Numbered from the stretch's first letter, positions 2,035 to 49,237 are shown. The stretch: DNA of 64,000 nt from Verrucomicrobiota bacterium (GCA_039806935.1 JBDHQH010000002.1:33872-97871); one strand, 5' to 3'. Numbers and translations are program-made. The notes: generated by a model from the letters alone, not told the origin.

Positions 2035-2076
2035 CTTGACGCAAGTCAAGGATTCTGGCGCGGCGACCTCTACAGT
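2035..2076 (+). promoter_or_regulatory. FNR/CRP-family-type palindrome CTTGAC-N4-GTCAAG plus -10-like TACAGT upstream of the molybdoenzyme operon
   Basis: Perfect 6-bp inverted arms at 2035-2040 and 2045-2050, resembling the TTGAT-N4-ATCAA / TTGAC-N4-GTCAA class. TACAGT lies at 2071-2076. The palindrome centre is 41.5 bp upstream of the A of ATG 2084. Confidence 0.4.
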
Positions 2077-2083
2077 GGCGGGC

Positions 2084-3631
2084 ATGCGAACTCCGCGCCG
2101 ACTCATGGACTGGCTGAGCTTGACGGTGGTATGCGCCTCCGCGCCTGGTTTGATGGCGACGAGTGTGACGGCTGCGTCGCTCGAGGCTGGCAAAACGATT
2201 TATCTCCAGCACTGCGCCGCCTGTCACGGTGATGGCGGCGACGGCAACGGGCCGGCCTCGGTCTGGCTTTTTCCCCGGCCGCGCAACTTCAGCGCCGGCC
2301 TGTTCAAAATCAAATCAACACCCGGAATGGAGTTGCCGTCCGACCAGGACCTCCTGGATACGGTCACGCGCGGCATGCCGGGCAGTTCCATGCCGAGCTT
2401 CACCTATCTGGCCGAGCGCGAACGCCGGGATGCCGTGGAATACGTCAAATTTCTCACCGCTTACACCAATGACGCAGGCAACCGGGTGAATCGGTTCGAA
2501 CAGGCCCAGGCCGGCGGCGTCAGTTCGCAAGCGATCCAGATCCCGCCGGAACCGCCGGTAACGGTGCAATCGCTGGCCGACGGAGCCCACCTTTTTACCA
2601 AGCTGAATTGCGTGATGTGCCACGGCGAGACCGGCGCCGGCGATGGGCCCAATGCTTCGACCTTAAAAGACACTCAGGGCCTCTATTTGCCGCCGCGGGA
2701 CTTTAGCACCGGAGCGTTTCGTGGCGGCCATACCGGCCGGGATTTGTTCACGCGGATCGCGGTGGGTCTGCCGGGAACTCCGATGGTGGCTTTTGACAAT
2801 CAGGTCATGACAGATCGGGAGCGCTGGTCGCTGGTGCATTACATTCAATCCCTCCGGCGGAAGGACGTGGAAATCAACGACCTTTTGGCGCCCGTGGACG
2901 ACCGCATACGCGCCCCGCGAGTTCGGGGCAAGTTGCCGGTCGAGTTGACTGATCCGGCCTGGGAGCGGATGGATCCCGTTCGCGTGGCTCTGAATCCACT
3001 GTGGCCGGAAAAAGATACGATTTACGCGGTGGCGGTGCGCGCGGCGCATGACGGCAAGCGCCTGGCGGTGCTTTGCACGTGGAAAGATCCGATTCCCGAC
3101 GGGGCGCCGGTGCGAGTGCAGGATTTTCAGGATGCCATGGCATTGCAATTCGCGATGGATGGGAGCCCCTCGTTCCTGGGCATGGGGGACGCGACTCACC
3201 TGGTCAATATCTGGCAATGGAAAGCCGGATGGCAGCAGGAGGCGGACGGGAGGCGCGCGGACATGGCCGAGTTGTACCCCGCGATGCACACGGACACCTA
3301 TTTCGCCACCAGCTACCGGACGGCGCGTGACGCGGGAAACGCGGTTTCCCGCCCGCATCTCTCGCCGGTCGAGGATGCCAATGCGCGCGGCTTCGGCACC
3401 TTCAAATCCCAATCGCCCGCCGGGCAGAACGTCAGCGGGCGGGGTGTTTGGCGGGACGGCTCCTGGAGCGTGGTGTTTGTGCGGACGTTGAAGTCCCGGG
3501 AGGCGGAGGACGTGAAGCTCGCCATCGGCAAGCCGGTCCCCGTCGCTTTCGCCGTATGGGATGGACAAAACCGCGACCGTAATGGGCGCAAAGTCGTCAG
3601 CAACTGGCATCAACTTATTCTGGAACCCTGA
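2084..3631 (+). CDS. Gamma-type electron-transfer subunit: N-terminal dihaem cytochrome c fused to an EB_dh/DOMON-like haem-b domain
   Basis: Sec-type signal MRTPRRLMDWLSLTVVCASAPGLMATSVTAAS. Two CxxCH motifs: CAACH at 2213-2227 and CVMCH at 2609-2623. The C-terminal half (DFQDAMALQFAMDG...IWQWKAGW...VAFAVWDGQNRDRNGRKVVSNWHQL) looks like ethylbenzene-dehydrogenase gamma/NxrC-type domains. The ORF opens at GTG 2027, but ATG 2084 gives the better signal peptide. Confidence 0.8.
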   Translation: MRTPRRLMDWLSLTVVCASAPGLMATSVTAASLEAGKTIYLQHCAACHGDGGDGNGPASVWLFPRPRNFSAGLFKIKSTPGMELPSDQDLLDTVTRGMPGSSMPSFTYLAERERRDAVEYVKFLTAYTNDAGNRVNRFEQAQAGGVSSQAIQIPPEPPVTVQSLADGAHLFTKLNCVMCHGETGAGDGPNASTLKDTQGLYLPPRDFSTGAFRGGHTGRDLFTRIAVGLPGTPMVAFDNQVMTDRERWSLVHYIQSLRRKDVEINDLLAPVDDRIRAPRVRGKLPVELTDPAWERMDPVRVALNPLWPEKDTIYAVAVRAAHDGKRLAVLCTWKDPIPDGAPVRVQDFQDAMALQFAMDGSPSFLGMGDATHLVNIWQWKAGWQQEADGRRADMAELYPAMHTDTYFATSYRTARDAGNAVSRPHLSPVEDANARGFGTFKSQSPAGQNVSGRGVWRDGSWSVVFVRTLKSREAEDVKLAIGKPVPVAFAVWDGQNRDRNGRKVVSNWHQLILEP

Positions 3632-3647
3632 GAACTCCCCCCAAACC

Positions 3648-6600
3648 ATGAACCATAATCTTTCCCGCCGTGACTTCATCCAGCGCAGCGGCCTCGCGGG
3701 CGCCGGCATCGCCGCCGCGCAAATGCTGCCCCTTCGTTTTTTGCAGGCCCAGACGGCCGAAGAACTGGCGAACCCGCTGGCGCATTACCCCAGCCGGGAT
3801 TGGGAGAAGCTTTACCGGAACCAATACGCCTACGACCACACCTTCTCCTGGGTGTGCGCCCCCAACGACACGCATAATTGCCGCATCACGGCGCAGGTGC
3901 GGAACGGCGTCATCGTCCGGCTGGGCGAGGAGTACGACGTCGATACCTACTCGGACATTTATGGCAATCACGCCACAGCCAACTGGGGCAACCGGCATTG
4001 CGCCAAAGGCTATACTTTCCATCGCATTCTTTACGGTCCTTACCGGCTCAAGCACCCCATCGTGCGCCGGGGATGGAAGCGCTGGGCCGACGCGGGTTTT
4101 CCGGAACTGACCCCCGAGGTCAAGGCCAAGTACCTTTTTGATTCGCGGGGGACGGACAAATTTGAGCGGATTTCCTGGGACGACGCCCTCTCCTATATCG
4201 CCCGGGCCATGAAGGCCATCGCCGTGAGATACAGTGGCGAGGCGGGCGCCCAACGGCTTGAGGCGCAAGGCTACCCCAAGGAGATGATCGAAGACATGGG
4301 CGGGGCCGGCACCCGCACCATTAAAATGCGCGGCGGGATGGGATTGCTCGGCGTGCTGGGCAAATACGGCATGTACCGGCTCTGCAACTCGCTGGCGTTG
4401 CTGGACGTCCACGTCCGCGGGGTGAAACCGGAGGAGGCCAGGGCGGGCCGCATCTGGTCCAATTACACCTGGCATGGCGATCAGGCGCCCGGCCATCCCT
4501 GGGTGCATGGGCTGCAGAATAGCGAATGTGATTTCAATGATCTGCGCAACGCCAAGCTGATCATCATGAACGGCAAGAACCTGGTGGAGAACAAAATGGC
4601 GGATGCCCACTGGTTCATCGAGTGCATGGAGCGCGGGGCTAAAATTGTCGTGATCGCGCCTGAATATGGCGCCCCCTCCACCAAGGCCGATTACTGGATC
4701 CCGGTGCGGCCGTCCACCGATGCCGCGCTGTGGCTTGGAGTGACGCGTTTGATGATCGACAAGGGCTGGTATGACGCGGTGTTCGTGAAACAATTCACCG
4801 ATTTTCCGCTCCTGATCCGCACCGACAATCTTCAGCGGCTGCGCGCCGCCGAGGTGTTCCCGAACTACACCAGCCGACTGCCGGAGGACAGTCCCAGCAA
4901 GAAAGTCCAGGGATTGACGGATGAGCAGCATCAGAAGCTGGGAGATTTCGTGGTCTGGGATGCCGCCGAGGACGCGCCGAAGGCGTTGACTCGGGACATG
5001 GTCGGCAAGACCCTCGCGCAATCCGGCATTGATCCGAGGTTGGACTTCCGCGGCCGGGTGAAGCTGGCGGACGGCAGCGAGGTTGAGGCGGCCACAGCCT
5101 GGAGCTTGTATCAGGTGCATCTCAAAGATTACGATCTGGACACGGTTGCCGAGATCACCTCCGCGCCCAAAGAGTTGGTGGAACAACTGGCCCGGGATCT
5201 CGCCACCATCAAGCCGGCGGCGATTCACCAGGGGGAAGGCATTAATCACTGGTTCCATGCGACCGAGGCCAATCGTGCGGCTTATCTGCCGCTGATGCTG
5301 ACGGGGAACATCGGCAAACCCGGGACCGGCTGCCACGGGTGGGCAGGCAATTATAAGGCGGCGCTGTTCCAAGGCAGCAAACTGACCGGTTGGGGCTTCA
5401 AAGGCTGGGTGGCGGAGGATCCCTTCGAGCAAAATCTGGATCCGCGGGCGCATGGACGCGAGGTGAAAGCGCACGCTTACACGAAGGACGAGGAACCGGC
5501 CTACTGGAACCATGGCGACCGTCCGTTGATTGTGGATACGCCCAAGGAGGGACGGAAGTGTTTCACGGGCAAATCCCACATGCCCACGCCCACCAAGGCG
5601 ATTTTCACCACCAACGTGAATCTGATCAACAACGCCAAATGGGCGTATGGGATGATCAAAAACGTCAACCCCAACGTGGAACTGATTGTCACGATGGATA
5701 CTCAGATGACCGCGTCGGTGGAGTATTCCGATTTTGGTTTGCCGGCCAATTCCTGGGTGGAATTTCAGGACCTCGAGGTGACGGCGAGCTGCTCGAATCC
5801 GTTTCTGCAAATCTGGAAGGGCGGCATCAAGCCGCTTTACGATTCGCGGGATGACCTGTCGATTCTCGCGGGAATCGCGGCGGCTCTGGGCAAGCTGACC
5901 GGCGACAAGCGGTTCCACTCGCACTTCAAGTTCGAGCACGAAGGCAAGCGCGGGATATATATCCAGCGGCTGCTGGATACCTCGACGACGACCGCCGGCT
6001 ACCAGCTTGATGACATCATGGCAGGGAAGTATGGGCCGCCCGGCGGCGCCCTGATGCTTTTCCGCTCCTATCCGCGGATTCCCTTCTACGAGCAGGTCCA
6101 GGATGCGTATCCTTTCTATACCGACACCGGCCGGCTGCATTCGTACAGCGATGATCCAACGGCGCTTGCCTGCGGGGAAAACTTCATCGTTCATCGCGAA
6201 GGACCCGAGGCGACCCCGTATTTGCCAAATGTCATTATCAGCTCGAACCCGCTGGTGCGGCCCAATGATTACGGAATTCCTCTCGATGCCGAGCATTGGG
6301 ACGAGCGAACGGTGCGCAATGTGAAGCTGCCCTGGGCGGAGGCCAGGAAGACCACCAACTTCCTTTGGAAGGACGGCTATCAGTTCTATTGCCTGACCCC
6401 CAAATCACGCCATAGTGTTCACTCTTCCTGGGCGAATGTGGACTGGCATCTGATCTGGAACTCCAATTTCGGCGATCCGTATCGGTTGGACAAGCGCCTG
6501 CCGAATGTCGGCGAGCACCAGATCCATATGAACCCGCAGGCGGCTCGCGACCTGGGCATCAAAGATGGAGATTACGTATATGTGGACGCCAATCCGGCGG

Positions 6601-7121
6601 ATCGTCCCTACCTCGGCGCGACCCCTTCCGATCCGTTTTACAAGGTCAGCCGGCTGATGCTGCGCTGCACCTATAACTCGGCTTATCCGTATAACGTCGT
6701 GATGATGAAGCACGGTTCGTTCATCGCCACGGAGAAGACGGTGAAGGCGCAGCAGACGCGGCCGGACGGACTCTCCCTGACCGAAGAGGGCTACATCTCG
6801 AATTTTCGCTTCGGCTCCCAGCAGTCGGTTACCCGCAACTGGCACATGCCCATGCACCAAACCGATACCTTGTTTCACAAAACCAAGGCCATGATGGGCT
6901 TTATTTTCGGCGGGGAAGCCGATAACCACGCGGTAAACACAGTGCCCAAGGAATGTTTGATCAGCGTCACCAAGGCGGAGGATGGCGGCCTGGGCGGCAA
7001 AGGCCCCTGGAAACCCGGCCTGAACGGCATGGCTCCCGACGCCGAGAATGAAACCATGAAAAAGTACCTCGCGGGCGACTTCACCGGAACCGGCGGTCCC
7101 GCGGCGCAAGGTTTCGAGTAG
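3648..7121 (+). CDS. Molybdopterin (bis-MGD) oxidoreductase alpha subunit, type II DMSO reductase family, NarG/NxrA-like, Tat-exported
   Basis: Twin-arginine signal MNHNLSRRDFIQRSGLAGAGIAAA. The N-terminus aligns by eye with E. coli NarG (RDWE...; FS0 region; YTWHGDQAP matches WYCDLPPASP, with a conserved Asp at 4479-4481). Length is 1157 aa. The antisense 3615..6296 ORF is a shadow. Confidence 0.9.
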   Translation: MNHNLSRRDFIQRSGLAGAGIAAAQMLPLRFLQAQTAEELANPLAHYPSRDWEKLYRNQYAYDHTFSWVCAPNDTHNCRITAQVRNGVIVRLGEEYDVDTYSDIYGNHATANWGNRHCAKGYTFHRILYGPYRLKHPIVRRGWKRWADAGFPELTPEVKAKYLFDSRGTDKFERISWDDALSYIARAMKAIAVRYSGEAGAQRLEAQGYPKEMIEDMGGAGTRTIKMRGGMGLLGVLGKYGMYRLCNSLALLDVHVRGVKPEEARAGRIWSNYTWHGDQAPGHPWVHGLQNSECDFNDLRNAKLIIMNGKNLVENKMADAHWFIECMERGAKIVVIAPEYGAPSTKADYWIPVRPSTDAALWLGVTRLMIDKGWYDAVFVKQFTDFPLLIRTDNLQRLRAAEVFPNYTSRLPEDSPSKKVQGLTDEQHQKLGDFVVWDAAEDAPKALTRDMVGKTLAQSGIDPRLDFRGRVKLADGSEVEAATAWSLYQVHLKDYDLDTVAEITSAPKELVEQLARDLATIKPAAIHQGEGINHWFHATEANRAAYLPLMLTGNIGKPGTGCHGWAGNYKAALFQGSKLTGWGFKGWVAEDPFEQNLDPRAHGREVKAHAYTKDEEPAYWNHGDRPLIVDTPKEGRKCFTGKSHMPTPTKAIFTTNVNLINNAKWAYGMIKNVNPNVELIVTMDTQMTASVEYSDFGLPANSWVEFQDLEVTASCSNPFLQIWKGGIKPLYDSRDDLSILAGIAAALGKLTGDKRFHSHFKFEHEGKRGIYIQRLLDTSTTTAGYQLDDIMAGKYGPPGGALMLFRSYPRIPFYEQVQDAYPFYTDTGRLHSYSDDPTALACGENFIVHREGPEATPYLPNVIISSNPLVRPNDYGIPLDAEHWDERTVRNVKLPWAEARKTTNFLWKDGYQFYCLTPKSRHSVHSSWANVDWHLIWNSNFGDPYRLDKRLPNVGEHQIHMNPQAARDLGIKDGDYVYVDANPADRPYLGATPSDPFYKVSRLMLRCTYNSAYPYNVVMMKHGSFIATEKTVKAQQTRPDGLSLTEEGYISNFRFGSQQSVTRNWHMPMHQTDTLFHKTKAMMGFIFGGEADNHAVNTVPKECLISVTKAEDGGLGGKGPWKPGLNGMAPDAENETMKKYLAGDFTGTGGPAAQGFE

Positions 7122-7137
7122 CGCCGCCCAGCCCTGG

Positions 7138-7431
7138 ATGCTTATGCCCAAAGACGAATTTGATTTCGAGGATCCGCTGGAATTGAACGGCGTGGCGTTC
7201 CTGACCGGCGAGGATACCACGGATGCCATGTGCGAATGTTTCATCGAGGAATTCATGCGCCTGGGGCACAGTCCGGAGCAACTTCTGGCGCTCTTTCGCA
7301 ATCCATACTACCTCGGCCTGCACATGGTGCTGGAGCAGCGCGGCGAAGCGTTTGTCCGTGAGCGCATCACGGAAGTCTTCGCGCGATGGGGCAGGGCGCA
7401 CAGCAATCAGCAATCACAAAACAAAGCATGA
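7138..7431 (+). CDS. Small acidic hypothetical protein (97 aa) between the alpha and beta subunits
   Basis: ATG lies 16 nt after the alpha stop. Its stop overlaps the beta ATG as ATGA (7428-7431), implying translational coupling. Composition is unbiased and protein-like (MLMPKDEFDFEDPLELNGVAFLTGEDTTDAMCECFIEEF...). Confidence 0.6.
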   Translation: MLMPKDEFDFEDPLELNGVAFLTGEDTTDAMCECFIEEFMRLGHSPEQLLALFRNPYYLGLHMVLEQRGEAFVRERITEVFARWGRAHSNQQSQNKA

Positions 7432-8699
7432 GCAACGTACTCAACTGGCAACTGGGCCGCGACATGGACTATCCCTATGAGGCGGCCTACCCGGATCAGC
7501 AGTTTGCCTTTGTGTTCAACCTGAACCGCTGCATCGGTTGCCAGAGTTGCACAATGGCCTGCAAATCGACGTGGACCTTCTCCCGCGGGCAGGAGAACAT
7601 GTGGTGGAACAACGTCGAGACCAAACCCTACGGCGGCTATCCGCATCATTGGGATGTGAAGATCCTGGATCTTCTCGAACGGGCCAACCCGGGCGGCCAA
7701 ACCTGGGATCCGGACGCCAAAGACGCGAAAGGGCCTTACGGCAAATTCAACGGCAAGACGATTTTTGAAGCCGCCCGGATGAATGTCAGCCCCGAAGGCG
7801 CGCAGCGGGCGCTGGGGTACCTGCCCGCGGATGAAGAGTGGTCCGCACCGAATCGGTATGAGGATCATCCGGTCGGAGCGGAGAAGGGTGTGAAGGGGCA
7901 GGGCTTTAAAGGCGGCGAGGCGCTGCCGCAGCACAAGACCTGGTTTTTCTATCTGGCGCGCATTTGCAACCACTGCTCCTACCCCGCCTGCCTGGCGGCG
8001 TGTCCGCGGAACGCGATCTACAAGCGGCCCGAGGACGGCATTGTCTTGATCGATCAGGAGCGCTGTCGCGGCTATCGCAAGTGCATGGAGGCCTGCCCTT
8101 ATAAGAAAAGTCTTTACCGAGGCACCACTCGAACCAGCGAAAAGTGCATTGGTTGCTTCCCGCGGGTCGAGGGCCGGGATCAGCAGGGCGGCGGTTTGCC
8201 CATGCAGACCCGCTGCATGGCAGCTTGCATCGGCCACATCCGGCTCCAGGGGCTGGTGGAAATGAACCGGGATGGCACTTGGAAAGAGAATCGCCAAAGC
8301 CCGCTCTACTATCTGGTGCATGTGGCCAAGGTGGCCTTGCCCATCTATCCGCAGTTCGGCACCGAACCCAACGGTTATTACATTCCCCCGCGGTGGGTGC
8401 CGCGCGGGTATCTCCGGCAGATGTTCGGCCCGGGGGTGGATGCGGCCGTGGAGAAATACAGTGCGCCCGACCGCGAACTACTTGCGGTTTTGCAGCTTTT
8501 TGGCAAAGATCATCGCATCTGCCACCACTACGAAATCAAGGAGGGGCCGAAGGTGTTTGAAACCGAGATTCGCGGAAAGAAGTTCGAGATGTACAACGAC
8601 ACCATCATCGGCTACGCGAAAGATGGAACGAAAATCATTGAAACCACCGTGGAAGAACCCATCCACATTCGGCCGGATAAGCATGCGAACTCCATCTGA
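7428..8699 (+). CDS. Iron-sulfur beta subunit, NarH/NxrB-like (four Fe-S cluster motifs)
   Basis: CIGCQSCTMACK, CNHCSYPACLAACP, CRGYRKCMEACPY and CIGCFPR, plus a WWNNVETKP motif as in NarH. At about 423 aa it is shorter than the cytoplasmic 512-aa NarH. Confidence 0.9.
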   Translation: MSNVLNWQLGRDMDYPYEAAYPDQQFAFVFNLNRCIGCQSCTMACKSTWTFSRGQENMWWNNVETKPYGGYPHHWDVKILDLLERANPGGQTWDPDAKDAKGPYGKFNGKTIFEAARMNVSPEGAQRALGYLPADEEWSAPNRYEDHPVGAEKGVKGQGFKGGEALPQHKTWFFYLARICNHCSYPACLAACPRNAIYKRPEDGIVLIDQERCRGYRKCMEACPYKKSLYRGTTRTSEKCIGCFPRVEGRDQQGGGLPMQTRCMAACIGHIRLQGLVEMNRDGTWKENRQSPLYYLVHVAKVALPIYPQFGTEPNGYYIPPRWVPRGYLRQMFGPGVDAAVEKYSAPDRELLAVLQLFGKDHRICHHYEIKEGPKVFETEIRGKKFEMYNDTIIGYAKDGTKIIETTVEEPIHIRPDKHANSI

Positions 8700-8880
8700 G
8701 GAACCGGATCGCACAGTGGAAGGGCCAAGCCGCGAGTGGGCCGCGCGTCCGGCCAGGGCGGCGCGCTCCATCTTCGGAAATTACACCGCACCGGAGGAGA
8801 GTACCCAGGACGAATCGCCAGCGGCGCCGGCCAATCCCTTTCCGGGTTCAGGGCCGCTGCAAGCCGGTATTGATTCAGCG

Positions 8881-9624
8881 ATGGCTCGGGCGTTTATCTA
8901 TCGTTTTCTCGCCCAGGCCTTCGCCGACCCCACAGAGGGAAATTGGGCGTGGCTGAGTGCGACGGAGAACCGCCGCTCGCTCCAGAGCGCCGTTCGAGTT
9001 CTGGCCGGGGGCGCCCCAGCGCTGGCTGAGGCTGCGGACGCGTGGTTGGCCCGGCTGGAGCCGAAGGAGTTCGAGACGTTCCTGGAGTCCTACCTCGCGG
9101 CGTTCGGCCATGCGGCTCGGGGCCGCTGCCCGTTGAACGAAATCGAATACGGAGATATCAAGGCGGATCCGCTGTTTCAACCGCATCGGCTGGCGGATTT
9201 GGCCGCATTTTATCGGGCCTTTGGTCTCGAGGTGGCGGACGGGGCGGACGAACGCCAGGATCATCTCTGTCTCGAATTGGAGTTCATGTGCGTCCTGGCG
9301 GCCAAGGAGGCCTACGCGCTCGAGCATCAGCTCGAACCCGGCGAGTTGGCCACTTGCCACGATGCCCAAAGGAGATTCTTGCGGGAACATCTCGGCCGTT
9401 GGACGCCGGCGTTTTCGCGGCGCCTGGCGCGACTGGCCGGCGATAGCGCGCTGGGCAGCCTCGCGAATTTGCTGCAAGCGCTGATCGAGGCGGAATGCGA
9501 GCGTCAGGGAATTCCACCCGGCAGCGAGGATCTGCTGCTGCGACCGGTCGATGAGGCGGCCGAGAGCCTCTGCCAATCTTGCGGACTGGCCAACCTGCCG
9601 CCGGGAGCGGCGCCGACGGCCTAG
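8881..9624 (+). CDS. NarJ/TorD-family redox-enzyme maturation chaperone
   Basis: MARAFIYRFLAQAFADPTEGNWAWL...YLAAFGH...CPLNEIEYG...DHLCLELEFMCVLA is typical of the TorD/NarJ/DdhD-like delta subunit. An alternative ATG at 8683 overlaps the beta stop and would add a 66-aa low-complexity N-terminus. Confidence 0.75.
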   Translation: MARAFIYRFLAQAFADPTEGNWAWLSATENRRSLQSAVRVLAGGAPALAEAADAWLARLEPKEFETFLESYLAAFGHAARGRCPLNEIEYGDIKADPLFQPHRLADLAAFYRAFGLEVADGADERQDHLCLELEFMCVLAAKEAYALEHQLEPGELATCHDAQRRFLREHLGRWTPAFSRRLARLAGDSALGSLANLLQALIEAECERQGIPPGSEDLLLRPVDEAAESLCQSCGLANLPPGAAPTA

Positions 9625-9628
9625 CTAT

Positions 9629-10585
9629 ATGCGCCTGCGCTACGACGAAGATTTTGTGGAAGCGGTCGTTCTCGGCGCGGCGGGTGCCGGGCAGAGGAAC
9701 ATTCCGGCGCTCCAGATCAGCCGGTTCCACCGGCACCGGGAGCGGCTCTACACCATACTCGATCCAGACGAGCGCAACGCCGCTTTTTTCAAACTCCATC
9801 TGGAGTGGTTTCGCGAATGGGGATTGGAGCAGCGTTTGATTGGGCCTTTGCGGCATTTTCCTTTACTCGCCACCGGGCTGGCGGCGTTGGCGGTGCGTCA
9901 GGCGCGCGGTCGGGATGACGAGGGATCCGAACTCTACGTCAATGAGCAGGGCGTCCGGACCGGCGTTCTGGCCATGCGCCCGGAACGATTGATCCGCGAT
10001 CTGGAGCTGCCGACATTTTTGCGCCATGAGCTCACTCATCTGAACGATATGCTTGCCCCGGCCTTTGGTTATCGTCCTGAGCTGGCGGGAGCAGGCGAAT
10101 TTCTGGGATCCCAACGACTGGCGCGCGAGCGGTATCGCCTGCTGTGGGATGTGACCATCGACGGGCGCGCGGCGCGCGACGGCCATCCAACCCTCGCCAC
10201 CCGGGAGCAGCGCTGGGTGGCTTTCATCCGGGGTTTTCCTTTTTGGGACGATACTCAACAACGGGAAATTTTTGACTCGCTTTGGAGTGATCCCCGCCCC
10301 ACTCACGCGCGATTGGAGGAACTCGTTCGCGATCCGCGCCAATTGCTGCGCGCCGGACCCGGCCCGGGGTCGCCATGTCCTTTGTGCGGCTTCCCCAGTT
10401 TTGCCTGGGCGGAAGCGGCGAGTCTTGCGGACGAAACCCTGAAAGCCATCCAAGCCGAATTTCCGGCGTGGTCTCCGAGGCGGGGTGTTTGCCGCAGGTG
10501 CGCCGAGATCTATCGGCGCGGATCACCGGCCGTGGCCGGCGAATCGGTTCGCCGCCACAACGAGGTTCAGCCTTCGCTCCCATGA
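9629..10585 (+). CDS. Hypothetical protein with an HExxH motif and a C-terminal CxxC...CxxC pair
   Basis: ATG lies 4 nt after the chaperone stop, and its stop overlaps the next ATG (ATGA). HELTH is at 10025-10039. CPLC...CRRC sits near the C-terminus. No family recognised. Confidence 0.65.
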   Translation: MRLRYDEDFVEAVVLGAAGAGQRNIPALQISRFHRHRERLYTILDPDERNAAFFKLHLEWFREWGLEQRLIGPLRHFPLLATGLAALAVRQARGRDDEGSELYVNEQGVRTGVLAMRPERLIRDLELPTFLRHELTHLNDMLAPAFGYRPELAGAGEFLGSQRLARERYRLLWDVTIDGRAARDGHPTLATREQRWVAFIRGFPFWDDTQQREIFDSLWSDPRPTHARLEELVRDPRQLLRAGPGPGSPCPLCGFPSFAWAEAASLADETLKAIQAEFPAWSPRRGVCRRCAEIYRRGSPAVAGESVRRHNEVQPSLP

Positions 10586-11043
10586 TTGCGATCCGCCAGC
10601 TTTTTCTTTCTCCCGGCCACAATTTTTTCGGGCATCACGGCCAACCCGCAGGACAACATCCGGCCTTGGAAGTGGATGAACTGGACTGCCGCGCCAACCG
10701 CGGCATCCGTGGCGACCGCTTTTTCGATTACCAGCCGGATTATAAGGGGCAGATCACGTTTTTTTCCGAGGAGATCTTCGACGCCATGCGGCGTGAGCTT
10801 GGCCTGGCGGACGCGCAACCGGTCGCGGCCCGGCGCAATGTGCTGGTTCGGGGGGTGGACCTGGACACCCTGATCGGAAAGGAATTTGAGATTCAAGGGG
10901 TGCGGTTCGCCGGGGTGGAGCAGTGCAAGCCTTGTTACTGGATGAACTCCGCCCTGGGCCCCGGAGCGGAGGATTGGATGCAAGGGCGGGGCGGCTTGCG
11001 GGCGCGGATTCTGACCGATGGGATTTTAAGGCGCACGGCATGA
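10582..11043 (+). CDS. MOSC domain-containing protein (YiiM-like)
   Basis: MIAIRQLFLSPGHNFFGHHG...RGDRFFD...RRNVLVRGVDL...FEIQGVRFAGVEQCKPCYWM...GGLRARILTDG matches the MOSC beta-barrel pattern with its conserved Cys. ATGA overlaps at both ends. Confidence 0.8.
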   Translation: MIAIRQLFLSPGHNFFGHHGQPAGQHPALEVDELDCRANRGIRGDRFFDYQPDYKGQITFFSEEIFDAMRRELGLADAQPVAARRNVLVRGVDLDTLIGKEFEIQGVRFAGVEQCKPCYWMNSALGPGAEDWMQGRGGLRARILTDGILRRTA

Positions 11044-11639
11044 ACCTGGGCGCAGTCATCCTGGCGGGCGGTGAATCAAGCCGGATGGGGCGAGATAAGG
11101 CTTGGGTGACGGTGGCGGGCCAGCCGTTGATGGTCCGGGCCAACCGGGCCATTCGCGAGGCGGGTGTCTGTGAAGTCTATATCTCCGGCCATGGCGGACG
11201 GGACTATTCGTCGCTGGGCTGCCCGGTGTTGGTGGATCGGGAACCCGGTTTCGGTCCGCTGGCCGGAATGGATCGCGCGCTGGAAGAGGTGCGGGCGCCG
11301 TTGTTATTGGTGCTGGCGGTGGATTTGCCGCGTCTGGATGCCGAATTCATCCGCCTGCTGGCCGCGCAGTGCGATCCGCTCACGGGCGCCATTCCCAGAG
11401 TGCGCGGCCAATTAGAGCCATTGGCGGCGATTTACCCCAAACGTTGCCGGTATTTGGCCCGGGATTGCCTGTTGCGACGCCAGTTGGCGGCGCGCGAATT
11501 TGCCAATGCCTGCCTGCGCGAGCGCGCCGTCAAGGCCTTTCCGGTGGGGCGTCGGCATGTCCGCTGCTTTGACAATTGCAACACGCCTGCCGATCTCGCC
11601 GCTGTCGGAATTGGAGCCGGAGCCGGCGAGTACCCTTAA
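11040..11639 (+). CDS. mobA: Molybdenum cofactor guanylyltransferase
   Basis: MNLGAVILAGGESSRMGRDKAWV...GPLAGM...LVLAVDLP matches the MobA signature. This fits a bis-MGD enzyme encoded upstream. Confidence 0.85.
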   Translation: MNLGAVILAGGESSRMGRDKAWVTVAGQPLMVRANRAIREAGVCEVYISGHGGRDYSSLGCPVLVDREPGFGPLAGMDRALEEVRAPLLLVLAVDLPRLDAEFIRLLAAQCDPLTGAIPRVRGQLEPLAAIYPKRCRYLARDCLLRRQLAAREFANACLRERAVKAFPVGRRHVRCFDNCNTPADLAAVGIGAGAGEYP

Positions 11640-12554: not shown

Positions 12555-13133
12555 CTATTTTGCGATGGGTTCGATGACGCCGCAGGCCACGCGCGCGCCC
12601 GCGTTGCCGGTGGGCTGCGTCGCCAGATCGTCCGGTTGCGCGTGAACGATGACCGATCTCCCGAGAATCGAGTTTGGCCCCTGGAAAGCCATGCGGGTAT
12701 CGACAAAGTCCAGCCGGGCATGGCCAGATTTGTCGGCCACCAGATTCCCCATGTCGCCCACGTGCGATTGCGGAGAGTTCGGCGCGCCATGCGGCATGCC
12801 GGTGGGATTAAAATGTCCACCCGCTGAACTGGCATCCGGGGCGGAGCAATCACCATGCTCGTGAATATGGAATCCGTGCTGGCCGGGAGTGAGATCCCTG
12901 ACGTCAGCGACGATTCGGAGCCCGCCGGCCACGCGCGTGAATTTCACCGTGCCATTGGCCTGGTTGCCTTGAGTTGGTTTGAGCACCGCGATGGCACGCT
13001 TAGGCGCGGTCTCTGGCGAGCCCGACCGCTCATGAGTCGCGCAACCCGACATCCCCATGATCAACGCCGCCAGTGGCAGCACCGTGCCGCCGTTCCATCC
13101 TTTCGCCTCGTTCCGAACCTTTTGCTCCCGCAT
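12555..13133 (-). CDS. sodC: Cu/Zn superoxide dismutase, lipoprotein-type signal
   Basis: GFHIHEHGDCS, GGHFNP, HVGDMGN and GARVACGVI motifs. N-terminal lipobox-like MSGC. Confidence 0.9.
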   Translation of the reverse strand: MREQKVRNEAKGWNGGTVLPLAALIMGMSGCATHERSGSPETAPKRAIAVLKPTQGNQANGTVKFTRVAGGLRIVADVRDLTPGQHGFHIHEHGDCSAPDASSAGGHFNPTGMPHGAPNSPQSHVGDMGNLVADKSGHARLDFVDTRMAFQGPNSILGRSVIVHAQPDDLATQPTGNAGARVACGVIEPIAK

Positions 13134-14415: not shown

Positions 14416-14760
<345 letters not shown>

Positions 14761-14793
14761 GGCCGAGCGCGTTTGGCTGCCAGGAATTCTCGT

Positions 14794-16248
14794 ATGCGAA
14801 CCGTCGTTTTATGGGTCGCGCTGCTGATGGCGACAGGACTGAGTCAGCCGGTGGTGGCGGCGGAAGCCACGCTGGTTCCGGAGCGCACCGTTGAGGAACG
14901 GCTGGATGATCTGGAGGCCTACTTTCACAACGCTCCCCGTCATGCCGACCCGAGCGCGACCAGCCGGATTTTCGTCGCCGGCCCCGGGCATAACAGTTGG
15001 ATGATGACTGCGTCCGGCCTGGTGCTTTTCATGACCCTGCCCGGACTCGCGCTGTTTTATGGCGGTCTGGTGCGGCGGAAAAATGTTTTGTCCGTTCTGG
15101 CCCAATGTTTGGGCATTGCCGGGCTGGTCACCATCCTTTGGTGGGCGGTGGGCTATAGCATCGCTTTTCATCCGGGCCGTCCCGCCTGGGGATCACTGGC
15201 GTGGGCATTTCTCGGGCATGTGGGCGGCGCGCCGAACCCTGATTACGGAGCGTGGGTTTCGCAGAGCGTGTTTGCCATGTACCAGCTTATGTTCGCGATC
15301 ATTACCCCGGCCTTGATCGTCGGGTCGGTCGCTGAACGGATGAAGTTTTCGGCCCTGCTGTTATTCATCACTCTCTGGATGTTTGTGGTGTATTTTCCAC
15401 TGGCGCACATGGTGTGGGGGGTGGATGGGCTGATGAACGGCGCGGGCAACGCCCACGCGAGGATCAAGGCAATTGATTTCGCGGGGGGCACGGTGGTTCA
15501 CATGTCCTCGGGGTGGTCGGCGTTGATTCTCTGCCTGCTGCTGGGCAAGCGCCTCGGCTTTGGGCGGGAGCCGATGCGCCCGCACAACATGGTGCTCTGC
15601 ATGGTGGGCACGGGCATGCTTTGGGTGGGTTGGTATGGTTTCAACGCCGGCAGCGCCATGGCGGCTGATGGGATTGCCGCCAACGCGTTCATGACCACCA
15701 CGCTGGCCGCCGCCACGGGCTCGATTGTTTGGGCGCTGGCGGAATACGCTTTCCGTGGCAAGCCCAGCACGCTGGGATTTTGCTCGGGGGCGGTGGCAGG
15801 TCTGGTAACCATTACGCCGGCCTGCGGGTTTGTCACTGCCAATGGCGCCATGGCAATTGGTGTCGCGGCGGGCCTGGTGCCCTTTTTTGCCTGCTGGAAG
15901 CTCAAGAACTGGATTGGTTATGATGACGCTCTGGATACGTTCGGGATTCATGCAATTGGCGGGACTCTGGGCGCGCTCCTGACGGGATGCCTGGCGCGGA
16001 CGACGGCAAACCCAAATCTCGAGTTGAACCTCAGGGCTTATGTCACCAATTCCTTTTTCCAACCGCTGGTGCTGGAGCAGCTCAAGGCGATTGCGCTCAC
16101 CTTGCTGCTGGCGACCCTTTCCACGGCTATCCTGGCGATGCTCGTCCGCGCCTTCGTTGGCTTGCGGGTTTCGGCGGAGGTGGAGACTTCGGGCCTGGAT
16201 CTGGCTGAGCACGGAGAAGAAGGCTATCATGCGCAAGCGCATTTATGA
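14794..16248 (+). CDS. amtB: Ammonium transporter (Amt family)
   Basis: Signal peptide followed by a multi-TM Amt pattern (FAGGTVVHMSSGWSAL, WVGWYGFNAGSA, DDALDTFGIHAIGG). The track ORF opens at TTG 14773; the first ATG is 14794. Confidence 0.92.
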   Translation: MRTVVLWVALLMATGLSQPVVAAEATLVPERTVEERLDDLEAYFHNAPRHADPSATSRIFVAGPGHNSWMMTASGLVLFMTLPGLALFYGGLVRRKNVLSVLAQCLGIAGLVTILWWAVGYSIAFHPGRPAWGSLAWAFLGHVGGAPNPDYGAWVSQSVFAMYQLMFAIITPALIVGSVAERMKFSALLLFITLWMFVVYFPLAHMVWGVDGLMNGAGNAHARIKAIDFAGGTVVHMSSGWSALILCLLLGKRLGFGREPMRPHNMVLCMVGTGMLWVGWYGFNAGSAMAADGIAANAFMTTTLAAATGSIVWALAEYAFRGKPSTLGFCSGAVAGLVTITPACGFVTANGAMAIGVAAGLVPFFACWKLKNWIGYDDALDTFGIHAIGGTLGALLTGCLARTTANPNLELNLRAYVTNSFFQPLVLEQLKAIALTLLLATLSTAILAMLVRAFVGLRVSAEVETSGLDLAEHGEEGYHAQAHL

Positions 16249-16259
16249 TTTCGATCGCC

Positions 16260-16275
16260 GGGCACGTTGTTGGCA
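16260..16275 (+). promoter_or_regulatory. Sigma54 (-24/-12) promoter upstream of glnA
   Basis: GGGCACGTTGTTGGCA. GGCACG is at 16261-66 and the -12 GC at 16273-74, 12 nt from the -24 GG. It lies about 70 nt upstream of ATG 16344. Confidence 0.55.
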
Positions 16276-16324
16276 AGGGGCCGAGAACAGGCCAGGCTGG
16301 ACATTGCTAAAACAAAACATCTGA

Positions 16325-16344
16325 TAGACCCAAATAGACCCAAA
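16325..16344 (+). repeat. Perfect 10-bp tandem duplication TAGACCCAAA x2 abutting the glnA start codon
   Basis: Read directly: ...ctgaTAGACCCAAATAGACCCAAAtg... Confidence 0.9.
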
Positions 16345-17756
16345 TGAACACACCCAAGAGCGTAATCGATCTGGCCAAAAAAACCGGGGCCCGCATGGTC
16401 GATCTCAAATTTGTGGATACCTTCGGCGCCTGGCAGCATTTCAGTTGCCCCATTCGAGAGTTGACGGAGGAGGTTTTTGAAGAGGGCTTCGGCTTTGATG
16501 GCTCGAGCATTCGCGGCTGGAAGAGCGTGGAAGCTTCGGACATGCTGGCGATTCCTGATCCGACGACCGCCTTTCTGGATCCGTTCTGCGCCGAGCCCAC
16601 GCTGTCCCTGACCTGTGCGATCGCGGAAACCGGCGCGAAAGTGGCCTATATCCGGGATCCCCGCGGAATCGCGCAGAAGGCGGAGAGATATCTGGCCGGC
16701 ACCGGCCAGGCGGACACGGCTTATTTCGGCCCGGAAGCCGAATTCTTCGTGTTCGACAATGTCCAGTACGACAACAAGAGCAACGGCGCGTTTTACAGTG
16801 TCGAATCCGAGGAGGGAATCTGGAACAGCGGACGCGAGGAAATGCCAAATCTTGGCTACAAGATTCGGCACAAGGAGGGCTACTTTCCCGTCGCTCCGAC
16901 GGATCAGCAACAGGATCTGCGCACCGAGATGAGCCTGGTGATGGAGCGCCTCGGTCTGGTCATCGAGCGCCAACACCACGAGGTGGCGACGGCCGGGCAG
17001 GCGGAAATTGATTATCGCTATGACACGCTCGTCAGGGCGGCGGATGCCATGATGGTGTTCAAATATGTGGTCAAGAACGTCGCTCGCCGCCACGGCAAAA
17101 CGGCCTGTTTCATGCCCAAGCCGCTTTTCGGCGACAATGGCTCCGGCATGCACACGCACATCAGCTTGTGGAAAAAGGGCAAGCCGCTATTCGCGGGAAA
17201 CGAGTACGCCGGCCTTTCCCGGATGGCGTTGTATTTTATCGGCGGGCTGCTGAAACATGCCCGGGCGCTGTGCGCAATCTGCAATCCCACAACGAACAGC
17301 TACAAGCGGCTTGTGCCGGGCTACGAAGCGCCGGTGAACCTCGCGTATTCCGGGCGGAATCGCTCGGCGGCGGTGCGCATTCCGATGTACAGCGAGAATC
17401 CGAAATCCAAGCGTATCGAGTACCGCCCGCCCGATCCGGCCGCGAATCCGTACTTGGCGTTCGCCGCGCTTTTGATGGCGGGCCTGGACGGAGTGCTGAA
17501 CAAAATCGATCCCGGCGAGCCGCTGGACAAAAACATCTACGAATTGCCGCCCGAAGAGCTGAAGAAAGTGCCGAGTGCCGCCGGCAGCCTGGCCGAGGCG
17601 CTCGATGCGCTCGAAAAGGACCATGAGTTTCTGCTCAAGGGCGACGTCTTCACCATGGACTTTCTCGACATGTGGATGGCGAGCAAGCGCAAAGAGCAGG
17701 ACGCCCTGCGGTTGCGGCCGCATCCCTACGAGTTCTTCCTCTACTATGATGTTTGA
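16344..17756 (+). CDS. glnA: Glutamine synthetase type I
   Basis: 470 aa. The N-terminal beta-grasp ([23 protein letters not shown]) and the catalytic region ([35 protein letters not shown]) are classic GSI motifs. Confidence 0.95.
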
Positions 17757-19806: not shown

Positions 19807-21234
19807 CTAAATGTTGGGCGGCACCAGGGCGCCCTGGCCATTGAAGTACGGGAAATGATCCCAGTGATCATCATCCCGGACCGCGCGGGGATCCGCGGTT
19901 TCCTTCATCCAGGCGTCCAGCCGCTGGCGCAATTCCCGCCGGGTTGTAGCATACGCGGGGTCGTCCGCGACGTTGTGCATTTGCTGGGGGTCGCGCCGCA
20001 GATCGTAGAGCTCCTCGGCCGGGCGCTTGCCGAAACAGAGCTCGAAACTCCGGCTAACGGACGGATCGGCACGGCGCGCCAGGATGTCGCGTTTGGTGGG
20101 GCCGTCGTCGCAATCGCCGAAGATGCGGGGTGGATCGGTCTCGATAGCCGGGGCGCCCGCCGGCCAGCGATCCGCTCGCAAATTGCGAATATAGAGGAAA
20201 CCGGGGGTGCGAATGGCGCGCATGGGATAGCTGGTGTTGCCCGGCCGCACGTAGGCGTGGCGCTCCCGTTCGAGAAACACCGTGTCGCGCAATCCGGATT
20301 TTTCCGCGCCTGTCAATAAACCGAAAAAGCTTTTGCCGGTCATGGCGGCGGGAGGTCGCAGGCCGGCGGCTTCGAGGAACGTCGGGGCGAGATCCATCAA
20401 GTTGATAAAGTCCTCGCTGACCTGGCCGGGTTTGATTTTCGCCGGCCAACAGGCCGCCAACGGCTGGCGGGTTCCGCCGTCGTAAAGGTTGGCCTTGCCG
20501 CGGGGGAAAGGCCAGCCGTTGTCGCCCGTCATCACCACCAAGGTGTTGGTCCGGCGGCCGTTTTCATCAAGCTGCCTCAAGAGTTCGCCGACCTCGCGGT
20601 CAAATCGCTCGACCTCGTGGTAATAATCGAGGATATCCGCCCGGGTGGTCGCCGTATCCGGCCAGTAGGGGGGCACCTTGATCTGCTCCGCTTTATCCGG
20701 ACGGGCGCCGGAACCTGGCTTGTAAGGGCGGTGGGGATCATGGCTGCCGAACCAGAAGCAGAACGGCTGGGAGGCGGGAACCGTCTTCAGAAACTCGGCG
20801 AAATTCGGGAAGGCCGGGCCCGCCGGGTTGCGCGTAAATCCGCCGGCCTGGAAATTGCCAGGAGCCCAACCCTTCCGGGTGCAGCCGACGGCGTAGCCCG
20901 CTTTCTCCAATAGATCCGGATAGACGGGGAAGTCGCTGGGCAAAAGCCCCCAGAGGCAACTGCCTTCCCGAAGCCGGTGGGGATATTGGCCAGTCAGCAT
21001 GGCAGCTCGCGAGGGAGTGCAGCTCGGGGCTGCGCTGAACGCGTGATGAAAGAGGATGCCCTCTCGGGCGAGGCGATCAAAAGTGGGCGTGCGAACCACC
21101 GCATCGCCATAAGCGCCCGCATGCGGCCAGGCCCAATCATCCGCCACACAATAGAGAATATTGGGGCGGCCTTCCGCACCATTCGCGGCCAGGGCAAGCG
21201 TCCAGGCGAAGATCCAACCGAGCCGGCTCTTCAT
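19807..21234 (-). CDS. Sulfatase (formylglycine-dependent)
   Basis: Signal peptide. NILYCVADDW...SCTPSRAAMLTG contains the C-x-P-x-R formylglycine motif. Confidence 0.9.
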   Translation of the reverse strand: MKSRLGWIFAWTLALAANGAEGRPNILYCVADDWAWPHAGAYGDAVVRTPTFDRLAREGILFHHAFSAAPSCTPSRAAMLTGQYPHRLREGSCLWGLLPSDFPVYPDLLEKAGYAVGCTRKGWAPGNFQAGGFTRNPAGPAFPNFAEFLKTVPASQPFCFWFGSHDPHRPYKPGSGARPDKAEQIKVPPYWPDTATTRADILDYYHEVERFDREVGELLRQLDENGRRTNTLVVMTGDNGWPFPRGKANLYDGGTRQPLAACWPAKIKPGQVSEDFINLMDLAPTFLEAAGLRPPAAMTGKSFFGLLTGAEKSGLRDTVFLERERHAYVRPGNTSYPMRAIRTPGFLYIRNLRADRWPAGAPAIETDPPRIFGDCDDGPTKRDILARRADPSVSRSFELCFGKRPAEELYDLRRDPQQMHNVADDPAYATTRRELRQRLDAWMKETADPRAVRDDDHWDHFPYFNGQGALVPPNI

Positions 21235-21321
21235 GATCCCAGTAAAGCAAACGACGCCAGAGAAGAAATCACTATTTTGGGGTTTTTTCCTCGTCTTGGC
21301 CCGTGGGTTATGTTTGTCTTC

Positions 21322-48829: not shown

Positions 48830-49237
48830 TCAGTCGCTTCCGGCGGCGGTCGCCTGGGCGATCAGGCCTCTCACGCCCGCGGCTAGATGATCGGTTTGAT
48901 CCGCCTGGGCCAAGGCGGTTGACGCTTCGCGGAGCGCGGCCTGGGCGCTCTGGTCGGACGCGGCGGCATTCCGCGCGGCTTCGGCGGATTCAGCGGCGCA
49001 CTGGCGGTGCTTCTCTTCCGCAAGCAGGCCTGCCTGCGCCGCCGATGCCAATTCGCGGTGCTGGGCTGCCACGGCGGCCAGGACCGTGGATTCCGCCGCG
49101 GCTCGAGGCTGAAGAAATTTTTGTTCCGCGGCGCGCGCGTTGGCGTCCCGCCAGAGGATCCGGGCCTCGGCCAGGACGTCCGCCAGCGAGCGGGCTTGCC
49201 GCTCGAGCGCCCAAAGCAGATCTTCCCGTTCACTCAT
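48830..49237 (-). CDS. Ala-rich helical protein (135 aa) with a W-R-D motif
   Basis: ATGA overlap with the upstream gene. ILWRDANARAAEQKF at residues 27-41. Composition predicts an all-helical protein. Confidence 0.7.
   Translation of the reverse strand: MSEREDLLWALERQARSLADVLAEARILWRDANARAAEQKFLQPRAAAESTVLAAVAAQHRELASAAQAGLLAEEKHRQCAAESAEAARNAAASDQSAQAALREASTALAQADQTDHLAAGVRGLIAQATAAGSD

Follow-up and report, generated by a model that had tools for sequence, protein, structure and literature searches.

Periplasmic nitrite oxidoreductases (NXR) have been described from Nitrospira, Nitrospina and anammox bacteria. The enzyme purified from Kuenenia stuttgartiensis, which is an anammox bacterium, catalyses the reaction in both directions, with a higher Vmax for nitrate reduction, and the crystal-structure paper highlighted Asp275, Asn70 and an unusual 3Cys/1Asp FS0 cluster, as well as Met155 and Lys305 at the gamma haem (PMC8387239). 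NXR-clade gene clusters in non-nitrifying organisms have also been noted repeatedly, and nothing in the present work overturns this picture. Examples are the clusters in metagenome-assembled genomes (MAGs) of the Armatimonadetes 'ATM' bin (Speth et al. 2016, PMC4821891) and of groundwater Elusimicrobia (bioRxiv 765248). Speth et al. doubted that the cluster of the ATM bin serves nitrite oxidation (PMC4821891), and the role of such genes in heterotrophs has been debated since at least 2016. Surveys of groundwater and soil score them as NxrA in many phyla, and metagenome surveys routinely count genes of this clade as 'nitrite oxidation'. Here we describe an operon of this kind in a stretch of 64,000 nucleotides from a Verrucomicrobiota bacterium (GCA_039806935.1, JBDHQH010000002.1:33872-97871), hereafter referred to as the window, with all positions counted from its first letter. 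The operon is predicted to encode a complete periplasmic NXR-type complex, which in its heterotrophic host probably serves the reduction of nitrate.

The operon and the enzyme it encodes

Listing of open reading frames (ORFs) and domain scans revealed eight intact, co-directional genes on the + strand at positions 2084-11639:

2084..3631, + strand: gamma subunit, with a Sec signal peptide, a dihaem cytochrome c domain and an EB_dh haem-b domain
3648..7121, + strand: alpha subunit of 1157 amino acids (aa), the catalytic subunit with a molybdenum-bis-molybdopterin guanine dinucleotide cofactor (Mo-bis-MGD), predicted to be exported via the twin-arginine translocation (Tat) pathway; Molybdopterin domain
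7144..7431 (alternative start 7138), + strand: small ORF, a 95-aa acidic helical protein without a family
7428..8699, + strand: beta subunit, 423 aa, with three [4Fe-4S] clusters and one [3Fe-4S] cluster; Fer4_11 domain
8683..9624, + strand: chaperone of the NarJ/TorD family, 313 aa, with a conserved core from 8881; PF02613 (Nitrate_red_del), TIGR03482
9629..10585, + strand: HExxH protein, 318 aa, with a C-terminal CxxC...CxxC zinc ribbon; candidate maturation factor
10582..11043, + strand: MOSC-domain protein; PF03473
11040..11639, + strand: MobA, molybdenum cofactor guanylyltransferase; PF12804 and the NCBIfam MobA models

These coordinates, the strand and the domains bear out the eight-gene operon proposed in the first-pass annotation of this DNA. 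The same gene set was obtained from independent gene calls on identical contigs, the contig having been recovered from several independent sequencing runs, and the GC content at third codon positions (GC3) of all eight ORFs is host-like. For comparison with other organisms, a scan with one genome per species was performed, which returned more than 590 relatives; the best 80, all with an alpha identity of at least 70%, were fetched. The arrangement is far from what chance ORFs would give; its six-gene core recurs in collinear form in about 80 loci.

In a search of PDB sequences, the best match of the alpha subunit was Kuenenia NxrA (7b04_B; 1715 bits, residues 5-1145), as compared with 190 bits for PcrA, 149 for EbdA and about 100 (101) for Escherichia coli NarG. 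The window alpha and Kuenenia NxrA (KsNxrA; reference sequence rebuilt from printed PDB alignments) are 61.5% identical over their full length. Published NxrA identities are 62% between Nitrospina and Kuenenia and 54-55% for the Nitrospina-Nitrospira pair (PMC3578206, by Lucker et al.), and the window alpha is therefore as close to a proven NXR as the proven NXRs are to each other. The Mo-ligand Asp in the motif WHGDQ aligns with Asp275 of KsNxrA, and the segment C-A-P-N-D-T-H-N-C aligns with Asn70, Asp71 and Cys67/75, giving the FS0 motif C-x2-N-D-x3-C with its 3Cys/1Asp ligation. The Tat signal scored 19.7 bits with TIGR01409 (cutoff 16.7), and the motif [ST]RR.F[LI][KQ], which reads SRRDFIQ in the window, is kept in essentially all of the approximately 75 alpha orthologues. 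The first-pass annotation had considered that this signal might be an artefact of start-codon choice, or that alpha might belong to a clade with a known non-nitrogen substrate. The score above the cutoff and the conserved motif speak against the former, and the score for NxrA, set against those for PcrA and EbdA, places alpha outside the latter.

The other subunits point in the same direction. The best PDB match of beta is Kuenenia NxrB (7b04_A, 598 bits), and its cysteines are grouped at 35/38/41/45, 180/183/188/192, 213/219/223 and 240/243/263/267. In gamma, Pfam detected two Cytochrom_C/CBB3 domains and EB_dh. Its C-terminal half matches Kuenenia NxrC (7b04_C; 92 bits, 1.9e-25), with conserved equivalents of the haem-b ligands Met155 and Lys305, and its N-terminal half matches the Kuenenia dihaem cytochrome c 6h5l_B (3.5e-44). 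We take 6h5l_B to be Kustc0457, the partner of an enzyme resembling hydroxylamine oxidoreductase; the annotation of kustc0457 is that of a dihaem cytochrome c. Nearly all gamma orthologues carry two CxxCH motifs. Taken together, this haem c plus haem b architecture is that of the 'alternative NxrC' proteins of Lucker et al., in which 1-3 haem c are combined with a haem-b domain (PMC3578206). With alpha, beta and the haem-b part of gamma all matching Kuenenia NXR best, the earlier assignment holds: as judged from sequence comparison, the enzyme is a periplasmic type II dimethyl sulfoxide (DMSO) reductase complex of the type formed by NXR and the periplasm-facing nitrate reductases (pNar).

Two other enzyme types were considered and rejected. 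One is cytoplasmic NarGHI, for which the scores were 133.7 with TIGR01580 (cutoff 1084) and 180.7 with the narH model (cutoff 524); a Tat signal is present, and neither the operon nor any other of the 32 verrucomicrobial loci was found to contain a NarI-like gene. The other is the PcrAB/ClrABC/SerABC/EbdABC/DdhABC type, for which the scores were 348 with TIGR03479 (cutoff 985) and 157 with the EbdA equivalog model (cutoff 2000).

Some gene boundaries were revised. The gaps of at most 16 nt and the ATGA overlaps reported earlier are as described, but a supposed gap of 181 nt between the beta and chaperone genes is coding. Independent gene calls place the chaperone start at 8683, which gives a protein of 313 aa and a 17-nt overlap with beta, and the in-frame stretch of the 'gap' carries M[PR]TPSE..EW.A[RK]..P[RK]RS[VI]FGNY, conserved in verrucomicrobial orthologues; for these two reasons we adopt this start. 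The small ORF between alpha and beta is real, but its length of 97 aa, counted from 7138, is not retained, and it probably starts at MPKD (7144), as in the orthologues and gene calls, with 95 aa. In two cases the first-pass start was preferred to that of the gene callers. For gamma, the longer ORF from GTG 2027 would take in a conserved promoter box, which makes ATG 2084 the better start, and for the MOSC protein (10582) the sequence LF.SPGHN..GHHGQPAG is conserved upstream of the gene callers' start.

Promoter and direction of catalysis

Two promoter elements precede gamma:

2036..2049, + strand: FNR/CRP-family box TTGACGCAAGTCAA; its centre lies 41.5 nt upstream of the ATG of gamma
2071..2076, + strand: -10-like hexamer TACAGT, which follows the box by 21 nt and precedes the ATG by 7 nt

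The box is the sole match to TTGAYNNNNRTCAA (strict palindrome TTGAY-N4-RTCAA) in the 64 kb, where 0.22 matches are expected by chance. A strict box lies 46-75 nt (mostly 48-52) before gamma in 25 of the 32 verrucomicrobial loci, including that of Limisphaera VF-2 (-46), but in none of the 33 loci of other phyla; the background rate of the strict box was 0.036 per kb over 1.35 Mb. The sequence around the box is not conserved across loci. TAnnnT occurs at offset 21-23 after the box in 16 of the 25 boxed loci (about 9% expected by chance), and an ATG is found at offset 34-38 in nearly all of them. This spacing of box, hexamer and ATG would place the box at -41.5 from a transcription start located at or next to the gamma start codon. 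The arrangement is thus that of a class II FNR-type promoter with a putative leaderless or near-leaderless mRNA, the transcription start being deduced from this geometry. A generic scan of the operon for sigma-70 promoters and terminators was uninformative.

Further copies of the strict box in sister loci directly precede hemN (L024), scdA/ytfE and the quinol nitric-oxide reductase gene norB (L029), a DUF1858 gene (L034), tauE-moeA (L007) and, where it is separate from the operon, MOSC-mobA (L028). In other bacteria, gene sets of the hemN/norB/ytfE type are controlled by FNR/ANR/DNR regulators, and the box-preceded genes in the sister loci are an anaerobic/N-oxide gene set. At L029 (16,540-20,071), in a deep-branching member of the Verrucomicrobiota, an NXR-type operon is directly followed by FNR-boxed scdA/ytfE and quinol nitric-oxide reductase genes, which looks like a compact island for N-oxide respiration and defence.

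The physiology of cultured relatives is known from the genus Limisphaera. Two facultatively anaerobic strains, VF2 and 4302-co, use both nitrate and nitrite for respiration, and 'distant homologs of NarGHI' were reported only for these two strains and not for the strictly aerobic type species L. ngatamarikiensis (PMC13608581). All Limisphaera strains compared in that study are heterotrophs with NrfAH, menaquinone-7 (MK-7), alternative complex III (ACIII) and cytochrome oxidases including cbb3 and caa3, and VF2 and 4302-co showed neither autotrophic growth on H2/CO2 nor selenate respiration (PMC13608581). Within the 64-kb window, we found no genes for autotrophy, nitrification, terminal oxidases, nitrite reductases or carbon fixation.

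The FNR-type box, the anaerobic and N-oxide genes that it precedes elsewhere and the nitrate-respiring relative make nitrate reduction the most likely direction. Based on regulation and on this cultured relative, we consider it probable that the main role of the enzyme in its heterotrophic host is anaerobically induced, periplasmic respiratory nitrate reduction. Direction and substrate had been left open in the first-pass annotation; the substrate is now narrowed to nitrate/nitrite, and nitrate reduction under anoxia is favoured.

We propose the following course, in which the regulator, the site where transcription begins, the source of the electrons, the parts played by the accessory proteins and the in vivo direction of catalysis are inferred. 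A regulator of the FNR/DNR family would bind the box at -41.5 and activate a leaderless transcript. Mo-bis-MGD would be supplied by MobA, which makes the MGD form of the cofactor, possibly together with the MOSC protein. The NarJ-type chaperone would load the cofactor into alpha in the cytoplasm, a step in which the 95-aa and HExxH proteins probably take part. The alpha-beta pair would then be exported via Tat and gamma via Sec, and we propose that the complex in the periplasm is either soluble or membrane-associated. A quinol:cytochrome c oxidoreductase with genes outside the operon would deliver electrons from menaquinol to gamma's dihaem cytochrome c domain, and they would pass by way of the gamma haem b over the four FeS clusters of beta and FS0 of alpha to the Mo centre, where nitrate would be reduced to nitrite. 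In relatives, the nitrite would probably be converted further to ammonium via Nrf.

Alternatively, the complex could be mainly a nitrite oxidase, in which case electrons from periplasmic nitrite would leave through the cytochrome c domain of gamma towards a cbb3 or caa3 oxidase and would give the heterotroph supplementary energy (lithoheterotrophy) or allow it to detoxify nitrite at low oxygen. Indeed, every characterised member of this structural type, from Nitrospira, Nitrospina and anammox bacteria, oxidises nitrite in vivo. Conservation extends to the high-potential Met/Lys haem b and to the exit route through cytochrome c, 'alternative NxrC' proteins combining haem c with haem b belong to the conserved set of true nitrite oxidisers (PMC3578206), Limisphaera possesses both cbb3 and caa3 oxidases (PMC13608581), and an FNR box is compatible with microaerobic expression. 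However, the co-regulated neighbours are anaerobic/N-oxide genes, hemN, norB and ytfE among them, the cultured carriers use nitrate as electron acceptor while the non-carrier is a strict aerobe (PMC13608581), none of the 32 verrucomicrobial loci has a linked bd-like oxidase, cupredoxin or other gene of the conserved nitrite-oxidiser set, and the window lacks autotrophy genes. We regard a main role in nitrite oxidation as unlikely. It is very improbable that the enzyme acts on a different substrate, such as chlorate/perchlorate, selenate, dimethyl sulfide (DMS) or a hydrocarbon, like other type II DMSO-reductase enzymes. The family is diverse in its substrates, chlorate reduction is a common side activity of Nar/Nxr enzymes, and alpha scores above noise with the generic TIGR03479 type II model (348 bits). 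Against this stand the 61.5% full-length identity to a nitrite:nitrate oxidoreductase of known crystal structure, the conservation of every active-site residue named for it, the mere 190 and 149 bits for PcrA and EbdA, the scores far below the equivalog cutoffs for EbdA, selenate and DMSO reductases, and the failure of both operon-carrying Limisphaera strains to respire selenate (PMC13608581). Lastly, a non-functional or recently transferred remnant without a physiological role in the host is scarcely credible. Although the genomic context differs in every locus and the operon of the close relative L035 is cut after the small ORF, none of the eight ORFs of the window is broken and their GC3 is host-like, ligands as well as signal motifs have been kept, selection maintains the promoter box throughout a clade whose alphas are 76-92% identical, and the same contig came from several independent sequencing runs.

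It should be noted that several points weigh against respiratory nitrate reduction as the main role. Enzymes of this family are reversible, and microaerobic oxidation of nitrite that feeds a high-affinity oxidase would also be compatible with a box of the FNR type. Moreover, no FNR/DNR regulator gene was identified in the window or in the loci compared. The 'distant NarGHI' of the Limisphaera paper are presumed to be the L015 locus, and VF-2 may have another nitrate reductase. The statements on the gene content of the host apply to the 64-kb window, and the alpha tree described below contains a single characterised reference.

Distribution, accessory proteins and surroundings

Among the best 80 relatives, 33 were Verrucomicrobiota with 76-92% alpha identity, including the cultured Limisphaera sp. 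VF-2 (L015, 84%). The remainder, with 70-74%, came from Binatia, Methylomirabilota, Omnitrophota, Phycisphaerae, Planctomycetales, Acidobacteria, Eiseniibacteriota, Sumerlaeota and others. When the eight window proteins were searched by tblastn, the order gamma, alpha, small ORF, beta, chaperone and HExxH protein was observed wherever the length of the locus allowed a judgement; the core is collinear in about 80 loci, which represent more than 10 phyla. By the same search, MOSC and MobA are linked to the operon in Verrucomicrobiota only. Beyond these two genes, a search for conserved neighbours that could point to the electron donor or the regulator was negative, also within the verrucomicrobial set, and the flanks in the window match those of no other verrucomicrobial locus. 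The operon is therefore a self-contained module in variable contexts.

In a neighbour-joining (NJ) tree of alpha (1145 columns, 100 bootstraps), with Kuenenia as the sole characterised reference, the verrucomicrobial alphas are monophyletic with a bootstrap value of 100. The window sequence adjoins L001, L026 and L035, and the clade includes L015. Kuenenia NxrA branches just outside the multi-phylum clade that holds the window, and groups with 42-47% identity (SAR202, Gaiellaceae) and the haloarchaeal representative (34%) fall far outside; placement relative to Nitrospira and Nitrospina relies on published identities. In L035 (92% alpha identity; 13,780 onward), the operon ends after the small ORF, and no beta, chaperone or later genes were found within 10 kb. 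This break is either a real truncation or due to a chimeric contig, there being no run of N. The record titles of L001, L005, L013, L017, L027, L033, L036, L061 and L062 disagree with the position of the operon in the tree; the discordant labels include Bifidobacterium, Akkermansia muciniphila, Limnocylindrales, Myxococcales and Pseudomonadales, so that these records seem to be wrongly labelled or to contain contigs assigned to the wrong bin.

Two proteins of the six-gene core have no described family. The 95-aa protein is encoded between alpha and beta in 67 loci of all phyla, with 33-80% identity. It is acidic, lacks a signal peptide and has the consensus MP.DE.DP.DP.EL.G...ED....MA.CF.EEF.R.G......LF.NP.Y.G, and its 776 database homologues are all annotated as 'hypothetical'. 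The AlphaFold2 (AF2) model shows a small helical bundle with a predicted local distance difference test (pLDDT) score above 95 in its core. A search with this model gave no significant PDB fold match, and a Pfam scan of the homologue set gave no credible family. Weak matches to PF05213 (Coronavirus NS2A) were seen in 37 of 52 homologues, with a best E of 2e-5, but not in the window copy, and these are almost certainly chance local resemblances.

The HExxH protein follows directly after the chaperone in 56 loci of all phyla. Its invariant residues include H133, E134, H137, D140 and C250/C253/C288/C291, and the motif reads RHE..H..DM.DP.F.Y. The AF2 model (pLDDT 90) has a sheet-then-helix arrangement around HExxH, and the PDB matches from the fold search, to metallopeptidases of the zincin type and to an oxygenase domain with HExxH, were weak and non-significant. 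The window protein fell into no Pfam or NCBIfam family, and a Pfam scan of the homologue set gave nothing credible. The gene set conserved across the NXR regions of Kuenenia, Nitrospira and Nitrospina includes 'one putative zinc finger' protein (Lucker et al., PMC3578206), which is possibly a counterpart of the HExxH/zinc-ribbon protein, and Kuenenia has two small ORFs, kustd1701/1702, between nxrA and nxrB. By analogy, this enzyme type probably had the 95-aa and HExxH proteins as accessory factors from its origin. Both are cytoplasmic and encoded on either side of the chaperone gene, and they may therefore act in maturation or in proofreading before export.

The N-terminal extension of the chaperone (8683-8880, 66 aa) is found in most verrucomicrobial loci and is absent from the deepest-branching L029, L031 and L034. 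Its RRS[VI]F sequence resembles a twin-arginine motif, but no hydrophobic region follows; as a speculation, the extension might be a pseudo-signal that fills the chaperone's own binding groove.

The window otherwise contains genes that are ordinary for a heterotroph, such as those for a Na+/H+ exchanger upstream of the operon on the opposite strand, a short-chain dehydrogenase/reductase (SDR), an aldo-keto reductase, glucose-6-phosphate dehydrogenase, Mla transport, topoisomerase IV, UvrD, FtsK, and sugar-nucleotide and glycosyl-transfer functions. The 'sulfatase-rich' context mentioned in the first-pass annotation was not recovered, since the window holds one sulfatase gene (19807-21234). A periplasmic Cu/Zn superoxide dismutase with a lipoprotein-like signal (…GMSGC…) is encoded immediately downstream of the operon region (12555-13133, - strand). 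The nitrogen-respiration operon also has a nitrogen-assimilation island as a neighbour, a P-II (glnB/K)/Amt/GlnA cluster (14422-17756, + strand) situated 2.8 kb downstream; this linkage is not conserved in the other loci. The ORF at 21235-24306 (+ strand) encodes a protein of about 1000 aa with a proprotein-convertase P-domain and PPC domains, probably a secreted protease or adhesin. Two ORFs of 734 and 317 aa (46609-48813 and 49234-50187, both - strand) in a stretch with 68% GC had no Pfam match, and Rfam and tRNA scans of the window found nothing.

Implications and comparison with known systems

What the present analysis adds is a clade-level link to a cultured nitrate respirer, a conserved promoter that is of the FNR type and apparently leaderless, corrected gene starts, and a defined core of six genes, two of which encode universal but uncharacterised accessory proteins. 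The findings suggest that at least the verrucomicrobial branch contributes to nitrate loss, from nitrate via nitrite to ammonium, and not to nitrate production. It is conceivable, although we would not count on it, that the six-gene module in more than 10 mostly uncultured phyla is a widespread respiratory nitrate reductase that has been overlooked, and not a nitrite oxidase, with the 95-aa and HExxH proteins as universal maturation factors that had not been recognised before. If so, many metagenomic 'nxr' calls would report nitrate reduction. The question of direction is experimentally tractable, because the clade includes the culturable, nitrate-respiring Limisphaera sibirica VF2 and has a conserved FNR-type promoter, and the 95-aa and HExxH proteins are candidates for new steps in the maturation of molybdoenzymes.

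Among the known systems, Kuenenia stuttgartiensis NXR-ABC (7B04; kustd1700/1703/1704) shares with the window complex the Tat-exported alpha with its Asp Mo ligand, Asn70 and 3Cys/1Asp FS0, the four FeS clusters in beta, the soluble gamma domain with Met/Lys-ligated haem b, and small ORFs between the alpha and beta genes (kustd1701/1702). In contrast, the window belongs to a heterotrophic member of the Verrucomicrobiota without an anammoxosome, and its operon has no linked genes for an NXR-T tubule subunit, a bd-like oxidase, cupredoxins or additional cytochromes. Moreover, the gamma gene stands at the head of the operon and includes a fused dihaem cytochrome c part, genes for MOSC and MobA are added, and the promoter is of the FNR type. 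The periplasmic NXRs of Nitrospira and Nitrospina (Lucker et al. 2010, 2013), compared by published description, resemble the window complex in enzyme type, orientation and the 'alt_NxrC' architecture of gamma, and their conserved set likewise includes a TorD-like chaperone and the 'putative zinc finger' protein, but their hosts are chemolithoautotrophic nitrite oxidisers.

The clusters of the ATM bin and of the Elusimicrobia are similar in that genes of the periplasmic NXR clade occur without genes for chemolithoautotrophy, and their authors left the direction open or assumed nitrate respiration; the clade of the window differs in having a cultured nitrate-respiring member and a conserved anaerobic-type promoter. 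The 'deep-lineage Nar' of Thermogutta terrifontis may be a second example from a cultured organism. The archaeal periplasm-facing pNar shares Tat export, but its haloarchaeal representative is only 34% identical. With E. coli NarGHI (1Q16), the window complex has in common the superfamily, the probable reaction from nitrate to nitrite, a NarJ-type chaperone and FNR-type control, the latter being shared by many bacteria. It differs from NarGHI in scoring only about 100 bits with NarG, in its smaller alpha and beta subunits, and in the lack of NarI, the dihaem-b quinol oxidase being replaced by a gamma subunit with cytochrome c and haem b.

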